Virus genome (UHGV): UHGV-1605165
Strand: one strand, 5' to 3'
Length of the DNA stretch: 19,376 nt
Source: a virus
Shown here: positions 3,976 to 18,328 of the stretch, one piece after another
Numbering within the stretch: position 1 is the stretch's first letter
Layout: every line of letters begins with the position of its first letter
Made by a program: the position numbers and the translations under genes
Notes under the pieces: generated by a model
What the model was told of the DNA's origin: nothing
Databases searched by the model: none
Seen by the model: the letters and a program-made list of their open reading frames with translations, nothing else

Positions 3976-4000
3976 CAACAAAAAGCCCACCGAAGTGGGT
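3976..4000 (-). terminator. putative weak intrinsic terminator or attenuator just upstream of the tape measure gene
   Basis: Minus-strand RNA: ACCCAC-UUCG-GUGGGC followed by UUUUUGUUG (5-bp GC-rich stem, UUCG tetraloop, U-run). Lies in the 163-bp gap between the G-T stop and the tape measure start. Confidence 0.35.
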
Positions 4001-4892: not shown

Positions 4893-4901
4893 TCAATGCG
4901 T

Positions 4902-4928
4902 CCCCCTGTAGTGCAGTACCACAGGGGG
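4902..4928 (-). promoter_or_regulatory. intergenic RNA stem-loop between tail tube and chaperone genes
   Basis: Perfect 8-bp inverted repeat CCCCCTGT / ACAGGGGG with an 11-nt loop, located between the tail tube stop (4943..4941) and the G start. No U-tract follows on the mRNA strand, so not a classical terminator. Confidence 0.4.
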
Positions 4929-7658: not shown

Positions 7659-7669
7659 ATGCCCCCCAT

Positions 7670-7690
7670 TAAAAATGGGGCCGAAGCCCC
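7670..7690 (-). terminator. intrinsic terminator immediately downstream of the coat gene
   Basis: Minus-strand RNA: GGGGC-UUCG-GCCCC followed by AUUUUUAAU, starting ~10 nt after the coat stop (7703..7701). A competing hairpin CCCCAUU-AAA-AAUGGGG overlaps it. Confidence 0.5.
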
Positions 7691-7700
7691 GTTTGAATGT

Positions 7701-8840
7701 TTAACCAAGAATCAGACAACCATGTGCCGGCTTCACTGATGAAACACCCCATGCCAGTCCAACTTCATAGCGCACCTGGCGATACTGACGATACAGTGCA
7801 ATCTGGAACGTAATCCCTGAAATCGGGTCCGTAACATTCATTACATCATCAGCATTATCGCCACCTTCCGGCATTGCCGGAGTACGGGATGCCAGCAGAA
7901 ACGCGTTGCGATCAAACGCCATATTTGCAGTAAAGGCCCCAACAACTGTGATGGCAGTATCATCGGCCAGATCCTGACGCAGTCCGGGCGCTGCAAGAGT
8001 AATCAGATTGCTGGTCGCTGCTGCCACAACATACTGATTCGGATCACCAGCGAACGTAACAATCTGACCTGCAGAAATACTCCCCGAACCAGTATCAATG
8101 GAAATAAGAACATCGCCTTCTTTTTTCTCTCCATTCACGAGATAACCAGTTGCAGCAACCTTTGGCGCTCGTTTCACACCTGCCGAACTGTGAATATTGA
8201 ATCCCTCCAGACGCCCCAACACGCCCTCACGCAGTAGCTGTTCAGTGCCGGATTCATTCACTTTAAACAATACAGACTGTTTTCCGCGCAAATTAGCAAT
8301 GGCAGTGGAGCCAAGCACCATCTGCAGATCGGTTGTCGGTGCGCCGTTATCCTCCAGAACCTGACGAGCCAGAGCAGCATCAGAAAGATCATCTTTAACA
8401 CCAAACGGCGTTGTCCCTGCGGTTCCCACGGCGCGGGAAGCACCGAAATACAACGCACCAAGATCAGCCTCAACCTCGTTTGCAAGGGCGCGAAAAGCCT
8501 GCTTGAACTGATCAGCCAGAATGGTGTTGTAAGTCCCTGAAGGACCAAGAGCCAGTTGTTCTTCACCATTCCATTTAACCGGTGCCATTTTGGATTTAGT
8601 AATTTTTACATCAACAGTGCCAATATTTTGATCACCGGTATTCGGAGCTGACGGCCCCGGTACGATATCTTCGGTTTTCGCCTCAGGCGCAACTGGCGCG
8701 GTTACCGTCTGATCTTTTGCTGCGGCGTCAGCTTTTGCGTTTTTTGCTACCGCAGGGATAAAACCTACCTGCTCACGGGATACAACATCCAGGGCGGTAT
8801 AAATAGTCGGGATCAACCCGGTCAGGGTATTTCCAGCCAT
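7701..8840 (-). CDS. major capsid (coat) protein, P22-coat-like
   Basis: Likely start ATG 8840 (MAGNTLTGLIPTIYTAL..., AAGGA upstream) rather than the track start 8933. ~379 aa; position after scaffold and gene order TerS-TerL-portal-scaffold-coat suggest a P22-type module; followed by a terminator. Confidence 0.75.
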   Translation of the reverse strand: MAGNTLTGLIPTIYTALDVVSREQVGFIPAVAKNAKADAAAKDQTVTAPVAPEAKTEDIVPGPSAPNTGDQNIGTVDVKITKSKMAPVKWNGEEQLALGPSGTYNTILADQFKQAFRALANEVEADLGALYFGASRAVGTAGTTPFGVKDDLSDAALARQVLEDNGAPTTDLQMVLGSTAIANLRGKQSVLFKVNESGTEQLLREGVLGRLEGFNIHSSAGVKRAPKVAATGYLVNGEKKEGDVLISIDTGSGSISAGQIVTFAGDPNQYVVAAATSNLITLAAPGLRQDLADDTAITVVGAFTANMAFDRNAFLLASRTPAMPEGGDNADDVMNVTDPISGITFQIALYRQYRQVRYEVGLAWGVSSVKPAHGCLILG

Positions 8841-8938
8841 AATTAAATATTCCTTAAAAATTTGCGTAATTGTGAATAGATGGAGTAATGAGCTATCCAG
8901 CCCTGACACCAGCTCCCATCCGGAAGCTGACAAATGTG

Positions 8939-9703
8939 TTAATCAACGATTGTGATACCGTCTTTCAATGCGTTTTGCTTACCTGCAACATCCAGTGCAT
9001 CAAAAGCAGAGCGTTTCATCGTTTTCTGACCAATATCATGCTGTGTCGGACGGGAGCCGCCGCCATTGTTGCCACTGGCTTTCAGGATGTAGTCTTTCTG
9101 AGGGTAATTTTCGACAAGGAACTCCAGCGCCTCATCAAACTGCGCCAGTTCGCCAGGCTTCGCGCGGGAATAAATTTTGTTGCCGGAAGCGTCATAAGCA
9201 ACGATCCTCCCTTCTTCCACTTTGAATGCCTGCCCGAAGCGTGATTGTAATAAATCTGCCGGGATCGCAATTTTATCGGCAATATATTTTGAACCCGCAA
9301 AACTACCGCCAATCATAGAATCGTAAAGCTGCTTCTCCAGCATCTGAGAGCGTTGCTTTTCTTCATCTAATTGCTGCTGAAAATTTTTCGTAATTTCTGC
9401 CTTAACCTGGTCAACCTGTCCCGCATCGAGCAGCTTTTTCTGGTCGATTTTTGACAGCATTTCCAGTGCCTCGATCGCCTTCTTCGGGTCTTCGATAGCG
9501 GCAAACTTAGCCAGTTTTTCCTCTGCAGCTTCTTTAGCCAGGCGATGATTTTTTGCCTCGCTATTAAGCTCTGTAATTTTTTTTGTCGCCAGCGGTGCAT
9601 CGAAGCCAATTTCTTTACCATCGTCGTGCACATAAACTGGCAGGCCAGCAGTATCAATTTCTGCGTATTGTTTTCCGTTAATCTCGACCGTTTTCAGTTT
9701 CAT
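8939..9703 (-). CDS. scaffolding protein (putative)
   Basis: Real start most likely ATG 9703 (MKLKTVEINGKQYAEID...), because the track's extended start at 9775 would read through a terminator hairpin. Glu/Lys-rich helical middle region (AKEAAEEKLAKFAAIEDPKKAIEALEMLSKIDQKKLL); position between head morphogenesis and coat. Confidence 0.55.
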   Translation of the reverse strand: MKLKTVEINGKQYAEIDTAGLPVYVHDDGKEIGFDAPLATKKITELNSEAKNHRLAKEAAEEKLAKFAAIEDPKKAIEALEMLSKIDQKKLLDAGQVDQVKAEITKNFQQQLDEEKQRSQMLEKQLYDSMIGGSFAGSKYIADKIAIPADLLQSRFGQAFKVEEGRIVAYDASGNKIYSRAKPGELAQFDEALEFLVENYPQKDYILKASGNNGGGSRPTQHDIGQKTMKRSAFDALDVAGKQNALKDGITIVD

Positions 9704-9760
9704 ATTAGTACCTGGTTTAAGTCTTCCGACAGTTACGCTGCTCACCATCCGGATCGCAGC

Positions 9761-9788
9761 AATAAAAAAGGCCACCCGAAGGTAGCCT
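9761..9788 (-). terminator. intrinsic terminator between head-morphogenesis and scaffold genes
   Basis: Minus-strand RNA: AGGCUACC-UUCG-GGUGGCCU (8-bp stem with one U-G wobble, UUCG loop) followed by UUUUUUAUU. On the plus strand the same stem has a C-A mismatch, so it is oriented with late transcription. Confidence 0.6.
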
Positions 9789-9807
9789 GTTGTAATAAAT
9801 GATTTAT

Positions 9808-10923
9808 TTAAATCCCTGCTTTTCTGAATACCTGTGCATCACGCTCACGGAGCTGCTTCAGCGTCAGCCATTCGCCTTTATCGGTGTAAAATTCATCTGG
9901 CGACATACCACCATCCCGAATCAGCTTTGCTCGGGTTTCCCCCACAATCTGTTTTTGTCTGGTGTAAGGCTGACGCAAAAACCATTCCCTGTAGGTTGTA
10001 TCTCCGGCCACCACGCCATCCATGCTGGCCCGCTCAGCCGGGGAAATATCGCGAACATCAATACCCAGTTCCTTCGCTGATTTCAGAATGAACGTTTCCG
10101 TTGAGCGGCAGCAGAAATGAATTTTTCCCGGCCCCTGCAAATAAGGCACGCTGTGACCTACAGGTTTATTATTCAGCGTATATTTGAGGCGATCCCTGAT
10201 TCGACATTGTGGCGTAGTACGATTATCAAGCGTTGATAACCATTGCTTACCCTTAATCAAATCATTATTCGCGCTGGCAAAACTCTCACGGGCAGTAGCA
10301 GCAAGATGTCCAACCGCTGTTTTTGCAATGCTGGCCGCATTAGCCCGGCTCATCTGCAATGCACCATCCTGAAATCCCTTACTGACATGTCCCCGAATTT
10401 TTCTTGCGATCTGCTCATTGGTATCCCCCAGCAAAAAACCCTGACGCACTGTATTTGTTATGCGTCTGAGCCGATCCGCCTCAAGATCTGAGGCCCACTC
10501 ACTGAGCAGTCGTCCCTGAAATGGTCGCGCCATTGCAGCGGCATAAAGTGCATCAGGAGAGATACCAACCAGAGGGTGAACATCAGCAACAAAATCAGGT
10601 AGCATAGAATCAAACAGACTTAACTGATAACCAGCCTCATAAATTGCCAGCTCGTTCAGCTCTCCGGAGAGACTGGTAAACATGCTGTTAATAGCAGTGC
10701 GGTTAACCTCTCTGACGCTCGCCAGAAGTGACTCCAGGCGCTTAACGGTAAAACTACCTGGATCGAGGCTGTCCAGTGCTATCAGCAGGCGAGCAGTAAG
10801 TTCCGCATCGCTGTCATTCAGTATTTTCACCATTCTGGCAGCCACGCCAGTGCTATAGCGGGATATCCAGACTGCATGAGCAATTGATTCATCACGCAGC
10901 CGTTCATTCACGGTTTGCATCAT
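9808..10923 (-). CDS. head morphogenesis protein (Mu F / SPP1 gp7-like minor head protein)
   Basis: 371 aa directly downstream of the portal with a 20-nt overlap, the conserved position of this family; ATG 10923. Confidence 0.65.
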   Translation of the reverse strand: MMQTVNERLRDESIAHAVWISRYSTGVAARMVKILNDSDAELTARLLIALDSLDPGSFTVKRLESLLASVREVNRTAINSMFTSLSGELNELAIYEAGYQLSLFDSMLPDFVADVHPLVGISPDALYAAAMARPFQGRLLSEWASDLEADRLRRITNTVRQGFLLGDTNEQIARKIRGHVSKGFQDGALQMSRANAASIAKTAVGHLAATARESFASANNDLIKGKQWLSTLDNRTTPQCRIRDRLKYTLNNKPVGHSVPYLQGPGKIHFCCRSTETFILKSAKELGIDVRDISPAERASMDGVVAGDTTYREWFLRQPYTRQKQIVGETRAKLIRDGGMSPDEFYTDKGEWLTLKQLRERDAQVFRKAGI

Positions 10924-16610: not shown

Positions 16611-16647
16611 TGAATAAAACGCACCCCAGCAGCCAGTGCTACTGGGG
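16611..16647 (-). terminator. putative intrinsic terminator downstream of trkG
   Basis: Minus-strand RNA: CCCCAGUAG-CACUGG-CUGCUGGGG (9-bp stem with one U-G wobble) followed by UGCGUUUUAUU; in the 137-bp gap between the trkG stop and the ParB-like start. Confidence 0.45.
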
Positions 16648-16733: not shown

Positions 16734-18191
16734 TTAGGAGCGCCAAAAAAAACCTGAAAACAATATAATAACAGGATAAATTTCAAGGCGACCAAGAATC
16801 ATAGCTATGCACATTAAACATTTTGCAATGTCATTAAGCACTCCGAATGACGATGCAGTAGCCCCAAAACCTAATCCCATATTATTAATACATGCAGCCA
16901 CTGTTGCAAATGATGTAAGAAAATCATATCCCATACCATTTAACACCAGTATAAAAAACACCGTGAAGAGAGTATAAAGAAAAAAGAAACTCCATACAGA
17001 CCTCATTACACGATCTGTAACTATCTTCCCTCCTACATTTACACTCAACAACGCTCTGGGATGAGAAAGCTGATTTATCTCGTGTTTGCTTTGTTTGAAA
17101 AGTATAAGAAATCGAAGTGACTTAATTCCACCACAAGTTGAACCTATACATCCCCCAAAGAAACTTGACAACAGCAAAAACACTATCGTGTGCGTGGGCC
17201 AACTTGCATAATCCTGCGTAGCTAAACCATTATCAGTGAGCATGGAGCTGGCAAGAAAAAACGAATGAATAAAACTTCCATGCAAGTCATACATACCTAT
17301 ATGCCAGACCTGGAAAGAGGTAACAATGATCACACCTAAGGCTATTAACAGAAAGAAACGAAGTTCAATATCTCTGATTAAAGGTTTTATCGTTTTCCTG
17401 CTAATAACAATATACCAAAGAGTGAAGTTGAAAGCCGATAGCAGGGAAAAAGAACCAGCCACCAGCTCAACCAAATAGTTATTAAAATATCCGATACTCT
17501 CGCTATGAGTTGAGAAACCACCAAGCGAAACTGTGGAAATCCCGTGACAAATAGCATCAAACAAAGGCATTCCTGCAAGTCTATAACAGACAATACAAGC
17601 AATACCTAATAAAGAATAAGTTATCCACAGTGTCCGTGACGTATCGGCCAGGCGGGGAGTGAGTTTGTCATCCTTAAATGGCCCCGGCATTTCTGACTGA
17701 TAAAGCTTTGCACCACCAATACCCAATAATGGCAATACAGCAACCGCCAGAACAATAACTCCTAAACCACCTATAAAATTTAACTGTGACCGATAGTACA
17801 AATATGCCCGAGGTAATGAACTAACATCATCAATTACAGTTGCTCCTGTTGTTGTTATTCCAGAAACCCCTTCAAACAGAGCATCAATGAACGTTAAATT
17901 AAGTTCTGAGTCAATCCATAAAGGGAATGCACTAATAACAGAAAACAAAATCCAAAACATTACAATTATAATAAACCCATCACGGGTACGTAATTGAATG
18001 CCAGATTTCTTAGTTGTATACCACGCTCCGCCACCAATGCAAAAAAATATAACGAAAGTTATAAAGAAAACAAACAGGCTTTTTTCTTTATAAAACAATG
18101 CTACAACCATTGGTGGCAACATTGAAAGACTATAGAGCCAAACCAGGAACCCACACATATGAGTAACAACTCTTACATGAGATGTATTCAT
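16734..18191 (-). CDS. trkG: Trk-system K+ uptake protein TrkG (TrkH family), prophage moron
   Basis: Polytopic membrane protein with TrkH-family segments FEGVSGITTTGATV, GGLGVIVLAVAVLPLLGIGGAKLYQSEMPGPFKDDKLTPRLADT and C-terminal GRLEIYPVIILFSGFFWRS. Likely start ATG 18191 (MNTSHVRVV..., 485 aa) rather than the TTG at 18209. Markedly AT-rich compared with flanks. E. coli K-12 trkG lies in the Rac prophage next to Rz-like genes. Confidence 0.9.
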   Translation of the reverse strand: MNTSHVRVVTHMCGFLVWLYSLSMLPPMVVALFYKEKSLFVFFITFVIFFCIGGGAWYTTKKSGIQLRTRDGFIIIVMFWILFSVISAFPLWIDSELNLTFIDALFEGVSGITTTGATVIDDVSSLPRAYLYYRSQLNFIGGLGVIVLAVAVLPLLGIGGAKLYQSEMPGPFKDDKLTPRLADTSRTLWITYSLLGIACIVCYRLAGMPLFDAICHGISTVSLGGFSTHSESIGYFNNYLVELVAGSFSLLSAFNFTLWYIVISRKTIKPLIRDIELRFFLLIALGVIIVTSFQVWHIGMYDLHGSFIHSFFLASSMLTDNGLATQDYASWPTHTIVFLLLSSFFGGCIGSTCGGIKSLRFLILFKQSKHEINQLSHPRALLSVNVGGKIVTDRVMRSVWSFFFLYTLFTVFFILVLNGMGYDFLTSFATVAACINNMGLGFGATASSFGVLNDIAKCLMCIAMILGRLEIYPVIILFSGFFWRS

Positions 18192-18328
18192 ATCTAAATA
18201 TTCTTTCAATTATAACCACCTTGCTGCAATATTATGATTATACTGTATAAAATTTAACTCCTCTTAGATCTTACTTCACTGTTCCTTATGAAACAATCAT
18301 CAAAATGAATCATATTGTAGTTAAGATT

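Follow-up and report, generated by a model that had tools for sequence, protein, structure and literature searches.

Why should a transcription terminator stand in the middle of a phage head gene block, ahead of the genes whose products are needed most? The question is raised by the viral genome stretch UHGV-1605165 (19,376 nucleotides (nt); "the window" below refers to this whole stretch), in which a hairpin with a UUCG tetraloop and a run of U residues, here called T1, separates a MuF-type head morphogenesis gene from the gene of the scaffold protein. The first-pass annotation of this DNA had called T1 a strand-specific terminator and proposed that it serves as an insulator or an attenuator. 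On the sequence evidence described below, T1 is a genuine, sense-strand-specific element of the terminator type on the strand of the late mRNA. The explanation that we prefer, with moderate confidence, is that T1 acts as an intrinsic terminator that stops RNA polymerase lacking the antiterminator Q and is read through by Q-modified polymerase, insulating the scaffold-coat cassette.

All long open reading frames (ORFs) of the window lie on the minus strand and form a late phage module. T1 begins in the sense orientation 19 nt past the stop codon of the MuF gene (9808), in an intergenic gap with no ORF in these 19 nt. In the minus-strand RNA, the pairs of its stem follow in the order A-U, G-C, G-C, C-G, U·G, A-U, C-G, and C-G, five of them G-C pairs, and seven U residues fall within the 9 nt after the stem. 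This RNA has a predicted folding energy of -13.8 kcal/mol (z = -3.3), which none of 200 shuffles matched, whereas the plus-strand copy contains a C-A mismatch, reaches -11.3 kcal/mol, and has no U-run behind it, in agreement with the strand specificity noted at first pass for the 8-bp UUCG hairpin and its tail. T1 therefore combines a GC-rich stem and a short loop with a U-tract, a position after a stop codon, and, as shown below, a selected structure, the features of an intrinsic terminator. Hairpins with at least 7 bp, at least five G-C pairs, a tetraloop, and at least six U in eight positions are expected 0.02 times per dinucleotide shuffle of the minus strand. Terminator-like hairpins with a UNCG loop occur three times on the minus strand, compared with 0.003 expected, and not at all on the plus strand. 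No Rfam 15 family matched the whole window at gathering thresholds, and a search with E up to 10 over positions 8780-9830 and the leader of one relative gave chance-level matches only, at 21 bits or less.

The first-pass annotation had set conservation in related prophages as a test of T1, and its loss there as grounds for refutation. We retrieved 80 viral contigs with the scaffold protein and compared 17 distinct close and medium relatives, in which the hairpin is kept with compensatory changes. Close relatives are identical at T1. In relatives at 77-79% protein identity, the hairpin reads AGGCUGCC-UCCG-GGCGGCCU, a double change from A-U to G-C that is present in 8 of the 17 sequences. The U·G pair is retained in all 17, and the loop is mostly UNCG (UUCG, UCCG, or UACG), one group having UCCA instead. 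Whereas the stretch from T1 to the scaffold ATG is conserved, the sequence separating T1 from the MuF stop codon varies freely.

A second sample, retrieved through an alignment of diverse scaffold proteins, comprised 80 species-level loci from Gammaproteobacteria, Betaproteobacteria, and Alphaproteobacteria. Sense-strand terminator-like hairpins in these loci are concentrated at two places, with 67 at -200..0 of the scaffold start and about 35 past the coat gene (+1900..+2100). In the other 100-nt sense bins the count is 0-3, rising in places to 7, and the antisense mean is about 2 per bin. With a relaxed finder, T1 was detected in at least 64 of the 80 loci with 36 different 5' arms, as illustrated by the stems of Photorhabdus (AACCUGC-UUCG-GCAGGUU), Yersinia (AACCCCGC-CACCGA-GCGGGGUU), Pseudomonas (AGCCCUGGC-AUAC-GCCGGGGCU), and Acinetobacter (AGCACC-UUCG-GGUGCU). 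Extraction anchored only on the U-run yielded 68 distinct sequences, most of which have a GC hairpin ahead of the run, and several of these had been missed by the finder. The U-run itself follows the hairpin in nearly all 68, making the U-tract the best-conserved part of the element. UNCG loops recur at both places, with UUCG in 16 and UCCG in 12 hairpins before the scaffold gene and UUCG in 32 elsewhere, mostly past the coat gene. Interior wobble pairs, which are mismatches on the opposite strand, are present in 19 of 35 distinct T1 stems, pointing to selection on the sense RNA. Taken together, these comparisons show that selection maintains T1 as an RNA structure of the sense strand together with its U-tract, which is the hallmark of an intrinsic terminator. 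A separate observation concerns the wobble itself: 16 of the 35 stems, from many genera, retain an interior 5'U·3'G pair, the weaker choice, in place of C-G.

The interval between the MuF gene and T1 turned out to be an insertion hotspot for small accessory genes in relatives. In three relatives, including Klebsiella phage 5 LV-2017 and Flyfo Tbat2_3, the inserted ORF has about 80 codons and brings its own terminator; HK639 carries a 38-codon hydrophobic ORF between the MuF gene and the terminator (1282-1396 of the retrieved locus), and Pseudomonas phage PS-1 carries two genes, including a 'transcriptional regulator' (373-1379 of the retrieved locus). In every insertion case T1 stays fused to the scaffold leader. 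Such insertions could be taken as a sign that T1 is the leftover of a lost gene, one form of a wider explanation in which the hairpin is a chance palindrome, a remnant, part of the scaffold coding sequence, or a host repeat of the repetitive extragenic palindromic (REP) type. However, the inserted genes of relatives bring a terminator of their own and T1 is still present beside it, for which reason we also rejected T1 as the terminator of an inserted accessory gene (moron). A chance origin is countered by the low expectation per strand given above and by the deep structural conservation with covariation. The sequence is found in 763 of 5426 complete E. coli genomes (14%), once per genome (median one place), which speaks against REP or any other dispersed repeat. 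For a coding role, the near-identical phage record ON470595 annotates a 278-aa coding sequence from GTG 9775 in T1, while RefSeq and homologues across phyla start at an ATG and give 254 aa. This whole group of explanations is contradicted by the comparisons made here, and we consider it hardly credible.

The annotation of the scaffold gene deserves a remark of its own. In ON470595 and other near-identical GenBank records, this gene is named 'coat protein' and its start is placed at the GTG inside the T1 stem. A start there would make the protein span the terminator and the structured leader (9775-9704), and it is almost certainly wrong, because RefSeq and homologues across phyla begin at ATG 9703. 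The RefSeq starts for scaffold (ATG 9703) and coat (8840) are the ones used here, and the analysis of T1 and the leader thus flags a wrong start codon in some public records.

What, then, would a terminator do at this site? The region is matched at 99.8-100% identity by ten phage records in GenBank, of which nine are induced E. coli prophages and one is a Salmonella phage. The longest near-identical record, ON470595, is 100% identical across an 801-bp query spanning T1 and carries Rac-type labels. In one orientation it encodes cI, cII, O, a DnaC-like module, the antiterminator Q, tRNAs, S-R-Rz, the TrkG-labelled gene, the terminase, and the head-tail module. Because of this gene order and single orientation in a near-identical phage, we assign the structural genes to a lambdoid late operon under Q, and we read the window as the Q-dependent late operon of a Rac-like lambdoid prophage. 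T1 lies downstream of the Q gene in that record, in the orientation shared by the lysis and structural genes.

Two reports describe how Q protects polymerase against termination: the protein builds a nozzle on the channel through which the RNA exits (10.1101/651190, 10.1101/2022.03.25.485794). Casjens and colleagues state of terminators within late operons that "their roles are not known" and name two options, partial termination or the stopping of transcription that is not antiterminated (PMC8022706). We favour the second option for T1, and the insulator suggested at first pass appears to be the most plausible role, because a Q gene lies upstream in the near-identical phage. Q-type processive antitermination would drive the operon, and polymerase carrying Q would pass T1 during lytic growth. 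Polymerase without Q, whether it started spuriously, entered from an accessory gene inserted upstream, or reflected leaky transcription in the lysogen, would halt at T1. As a conditional barrier, T1 would prevent the two head genes with the strongest translation from being expressed outside the late programme, marking the upstream boundary of a scaffold-coat expression cassette whose downstream boundary would be a second hairpin, T2. After read-through, the very stable UNCG hairpin would persist on the mRNA as a structural boundary before the scaffold leader. Termination, read-through, and the benefit of insulation are all inferred. As the U-tract is the best-conserved part of T1, action on polymerase and not only RNA stability is likely to be under selection; and as the interval between the MuF gene and T1 attracts inserted accessory genes, a barrier at this site would be useful. 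A restart of transcription from a promoter between T1 and the scaffold gene was considered and rejected, since a sigma-70 scan of the minus strand over 9830-9700 found nothing between the two and the U-run abuts a covarying RNA hairpin, leaving no room.

Several points weigh against this explanation. T1 is also present in Pseudomonas phage PS-1 and Caulobacter phage DMCA, whose late regulation is unknown, so that Q dependence is not generalisable. The element is always fused to the scaffold leader, its U-run leading directly into the next hairpin (SL2), even where genes are inserted upstream, and this linkage could mean that T1 acts chiefly through the RNA and not through the polymerase. The harm done by leaky scaffold and coat expression in lysogens is an assumption of ours. 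With regard to lifestyle, a small sample comprises Erwinia phage Gungnir39, Salicola phage CGphi29, and Rhizobium phage P106B without T1, and HK639 (which has Q), PS-1, and DMCA with it. Gungnir39 (21760-21866) retains the GGAU leader hairpins described below and the post-capsid hairpin, with only a weak AU-rich hairpin and a U-rich tail at the site of T1. Since it has no integrase or Q annotated, T1 may be linked to temperate, antitermination-based regulation; this is a single hint.

T1 is one of four sense-strand terminator-like hairpins in intergenic gaps of the window. The first-pass annotation had noted the same UUCG design near 7677 and 3985 and suspected a logic shared across the late operon. 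Hairpins of this design indeed lie at 7690-7677 (T2) and 3999-3986 (T3), and the design recurs past the coat gene and before the tape-measure gene both in the window and in relatives. T2, and not T1, sits immediately 3' of the major capsid gene, and it is kept in all relatives even though its flanks diverge. T3 persists in close relatives, frequently with an extended stem; in relatives at 79-81% identity, different terminator-like hairpins are found in its place. The fourth hairpin, past the TrkG-labelled gene (16647-16614), is a further barrier to late transcription and probably that accessory gene's own terminator.

These sister hairpins bear on the attenuator, according to which T1 is a partial terminator that sets the ratio of upstream to downstream transcript during lytic growth. 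This is the classical proposal for terminators within operons (PMC8022706), and it suits T2 and T3, which are followed by genes required in smaller quantity. T1, however, has the wrong polarity for this: it would reduce scaffold and coat transcripts compared with those of terminase, portal, and MuF, of which far fewer copies are needed. Moreover, Q is expected to bypass intrinsic terminators (10.1101/651190, 10.1101/2022.03.25.485794). We therefore think it improbable that attenuation is what T1 does.

The same polarity, a terminator reducing transcription into the most-needed genes, would be less counter-intuitive if T1 were mainly a boundary for RNA processing or stability. RNase E would then cut the AU-rich U-run, T1 would cap the 3' end of the terminase-portal-MuF segment, and the scaffold-coat segment, beginning with SL2 and ending with T2, would form a separately stabilised 2-kb mRNA that accumulates above its neighbours. 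In E. coli, an mRNA gains stability from stem-loops at its 5' end and from obstacles in the scanning path of RNase E. The two proteins required in the highest copy number are precisely those that T1 and T2 enclose, and this bracket is conserved across phyla; the U-run passes without a spacer into a conserved hairpin; and the preferred UNCG loops confer maximal stability. On the other hand, a stability hairpin needs no U-tract, yet the U-tract is what is conserved best, and a hairpin guards against RNase E only very near the 5' end, so that any protection would depend on the position of the cut. We regard processing as the main role as rather unlikely, and it is compatible with conditional insulation by T1.

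According to the first-pass annotation, the scaffold start signals lie immediately after the terminator. This is inexact, as the ATG at 9703 is 57 nt past the U-run of T1 and two conserved hairpins intervene, SL2 and SL3, both with a GGAW loop (GGAU or GGAA). Counting sense GGAW-loop hairpins over the 80 species-level loci gives 165 within the 100 nt that precede the scaffold start and 74 between the scaffold and coat genes. For most of the remaining bins the count is about 1-10, apart from slight increases to about 20 just inside the scaffold gene. We aligned 33 diverse leaders with MAFFT and compared the pairing with 500 shuffles and with slid controls. Three GGAW hairpins are 96.4% paired in these leaders, and 11 of their 13 pairs have changed on both sides; no shuffle reached the observed values, and the slid controls were 28-46% paired. 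In SL2, UA has changed to CG in eight sequences and CG to UA in two, and the helix homologous to SL3 is 100% paired in all 33 leaders with three covarying pairs. The loops are GGAU (89) or GGAA (37), closed by a C-G pair in 111 of 126 hairpins. A covariance model (R1) built from the 33 leaders matches the window only twice, at 9775-9701 (E = 4.8e-8) and 8949-8838 (E = 3.9e-8), that is, before the scaffold and before the coat gene, with the next match at E = 0.1. In total, GGAW-loop hairpins are not enriched in the window (8, compared with 8.6 expected) and neither is the hexamer CGGATG, so that the signal is carried only by position and covariation. It is close to certain that the C-GGAW-G leader motif is real. 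The coordinates of these hairpins and of the other features of the window are collected in Table 1.

Table 1. Positions of the T1 element, related hairpins, and genes in the window
Feature	Position	Strand	Structure or remark
T1 stem-loop	9769..9788	minus	AGGCUACC-UUCG-GGUGGCCU, 8 bp including one U·G, UUCG tetraloop
T1 U-tract	9761..9768	minus	UUUUUAUU; with the paired U at 9769, UUUUUUAUU
Scaffold-leader hairpin SL2	9737..9760	minus	GCUGC-gau-CC-GGAU-GG-uga-GCAGC, directly after the U-run
Scaffold-leader hairpin SL3	9721..9730	minus	GUC-GGAA-GAC
Scaffold start signals	ATG 9703; Shine-Dalgarno (SD) 9713-9710	minus	SD AGGU
Coat-leader GGAU hairpin pair	8890..8929	minus	CAGCUUCC-GGAU-GGGAGCUG (8929-8910) and GGGCU-GGAU-AGCUC (8903-8890)
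T2	7668..7690	minus	GGGGC-UUCG-GCCCC (7690-7677), then AUUUUUAAU; 10 nt past the coat stop codon
T3	3976..3999	minus	CCCAC-UUCG-GUGGG (3999-3986), then CUUUUUGUUG; 26 nt before the tape-measure ATG (3959)
Terminator-like hairpin past the TrkG-labelled gene	16614..16647 (hairpin 16647-16624)	minus	10-bp stem, then UGCGUUUUAU; -22.5 kcal/mol, z = -4.8
Endolysin and spanin genes	19266-18329	minus	
491-aa gene	16734-18209	minus	labelled TrkG in ON470595
ParB-like gene, then small and large terminase genes	downstream of the TrkG-labelled gene	minus	
Portal gene	12310-10904	minus	
MuF / SPP1 gp7-type head morphogenesis gene	9808..10923	minus	Pfam PF04233, phrog_241
Scaffold gene, DUF6651	8939..9703	minus	254 aa; PF20356, phrog_784, phrog_206
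P22-type major coat gene	7701..8840	minus	ATG 8840; PF11651, phrog_283
Connector and tail genes, then tape-measure gene	3959-726 (tape measure)	minus	

A leader of this kind suggests another role for T1, namely that it is an integral part of the scaffold-leader RNA, either a folding insulator for the GGAW hairpins or a binding platform of the Hfq/ProQ type. T1 does remain fused to the leader when genes with their own terminators are inserted upstream, and the sequence is conserved from T1 to the ATG and not in the spacer behind the stop codon. However, the GGAW leader also exists without T1. The coat leader has none, and T1 is absent with the GGAW hairpins kept in Gungnir39, CGphi29, P106B, and most alphaproteobacterial loci. 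This role for T1 is, in our view, quite unlikely.

In 7 of 61 loci, the AUG is preceded at a distance of 8-12 nt by the last GGAW loop and by no separate SD sequence, and there the loop itself probably serves as the ribosome-binding site. GGAW hairpins are also found in phages of Pseudomonas, Salicola, Rhizobium, Caulobacter, and Synechococcus, some of them without T1, and the motif thus ranges over prophages and phages of Alphaproteobacteria, Betaproteobacteria, and Synechococcus. They resemble the leaders and sponge RNAs bound by CsrA/RsmA in that GGA is shown in short hairpin loops, with two to four copies in about 70 nt, the last adjoining the SD or acting as one. They differ in being strict 4-nt loops closed by C-G and not ANGGAN hexaloops. 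A CsrA-bound leader would be expected to show at least two GGA motifs in hairpin loops within about 10-63 nt, one of them at the SD; GGA in loops and a suitable spacing were seen, and the SD is separate in most loci. S. meliloti and Burkholderia cepacia are reported to lack a chromosomal csrA (PMC7366521). CsrA as a universal partner of the GGAW hairpins is weakened by the range of the motif, which includes hosts reported or expected to be without a chromosomal csrA (individual hosts were not checked). Our literature search found no usable description of a GGAUG hairpin or of a link between CsrA and phage capsid genes. The C-GGAW-G tetraloop hairpins, which have no Rfam match, are a more novel result than the terminator.

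A broader proposal unites both elements. T1, the two or three GGAW hairpins, the scaffold gene, the second hairpin array, the coat gene, and T2 may form an ancient self-contained cassette, in which the GGAW hairpins would be an undescribed translational operator or SD-like landing pads for the 30S subunit and T1 an obligatory upstream insulator. We put this forward only tentatively, as something possible that we would not expect to hold. Such an operator would be bound by a protein that the phage itself encodes. The free scaffold protein is the most attractive candidate; it would then regulate its own synthesis, as P22 gp8 has long been known to do by a molecularly unexplained route.

Some observations were made on neighbouring genes. 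Several GenBank records name the MuF-type protein 'NAD+--asparagine ADP-ribosyltransferase', and Pfam and NCBIfam detect the MuF / SPP1 gp7 domain only. Its match to the phrog_241 profile, which has 679 positions, is confined to the first half of that profile, and a C-terminal extension of other family members is thus absent here. Five copies of TGCGCA(R)A, 11-14 nt apart, lie on the minus strand at 14546-14484 inside the small-terminase ORF and encode a repetitive stretch of the KxAQ type; the small terminase may bind this array (a pac-like site), or the repeats may simply form a low-complexity linker.

The wider interest of the locus lies in its recurrence. A terminator within the operon before the scaffold gene, together with one after the coat gene, is not a peculiarity of one lineage. 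Such hairpins, whose stems are unrelated in sequence, enclose the same two genes in prophages ranging from Escherichia to Pseudomonas, Acinetobacter, and some Betaproteobacteria and Alphaproteobacteria. Its presence in 14% of complete E. coli genomes makes it a widespread test case for distinguishing insulation from control of transcript ratios and from mRNA stabilisation. The covarying leader motif before the two most abundant head proteins may in addition offer a new handle on scaffold and coat levels.

How does T1 compare with known systems? Canonical Rho-independent UUCG terminators of E. coli match it in stem length, loop, U-tract, and placement after a stop codon. UUCG loops were reportedly found to be over-represented among E. 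coli terminators by d'Aubenton Carafa et al. in 1990. T1 departs from the canonical case in lying inside an operon, before the most-needed genes, and not at the operon end. In phage Mu, a late transcription-unit boundary, between F/G and I, falls at the same junction of MuF-type gene with scaffold/protease and major head genes. There, transcription is restarted at the F/G-I boundary by a C-dependent promoter (PI). In our case, in contrast to Mu, no promoter-like site was found from T1 to the scaffold gene, and the constraint on the leader as RNA begins with its very first base.

The logic proposed here, a terminator that blocks premature expression and is overridden by antitermination encoded by the element itself, is the one described for Tn916 and other conjugative elements (PMC11658703, PMC8191782). 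For Tn916, experiments have shown the terminator to act as an insulator together with antitermination (PMC11658703). Those systems belong to Gram-positive hosts and use RNA-based or bipartite antitermination; the role there is experimentally shown, whereas ours is inferred.

Closer to T1 are the post-capsid stem-loops of P22, HK97, and lambda and the terminator in the procapsid module of phage L, which share its GC stem, UNCG loop, U-rich tail, and setting in a Q-dependent late operon. The annotated stem-loop after gene 5 of P22, GGGGC-UGCG-GCCCC UUUCUUU, is almost identical to T2, and its role is acknowledged to be unknown (PMC8022706). As the element of P22, HK97, and lambda follows the coat gene, it is the counterpart of T2 and not of T1. 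P22 was rejected as a model for the region before the scaffold gene: only 13 nt separate portal (gene 1) from scaffold (gene 8), genes 8 and 5 abut, and there is neither a T1 nor a GGAW leader.

The closest parallel is HK639 (GenBank HM208537), in which a "terminator" is annotated at 4901-4922, the homologous site between a MuF-type gene and a DUF6651 scaffold gene. Its scaffold protein is 65% identical, and its terminator, GGUCGC-UUCG-GCGGCC followed by U6, leads into a GGAW-hairpin leader as here. HK639 encodes Q, and several more sense-strand terminators are annotated in its late structural genes, in addition to four just after Q. It differs in the sequence of the stem and in the 38-codon ORF that precedes the terminator, and as far as we found, the element exists as an annotation only. 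A terminator in the head block, considered unexpected at first pass, is therefore the rule for this head module, and terminators within late operons are known (PMC8022706). T1 itself is a further example of these; the new findings are its conserved placement across phyla and the enclosure of the scaffold and coat genes between T1 and T2.

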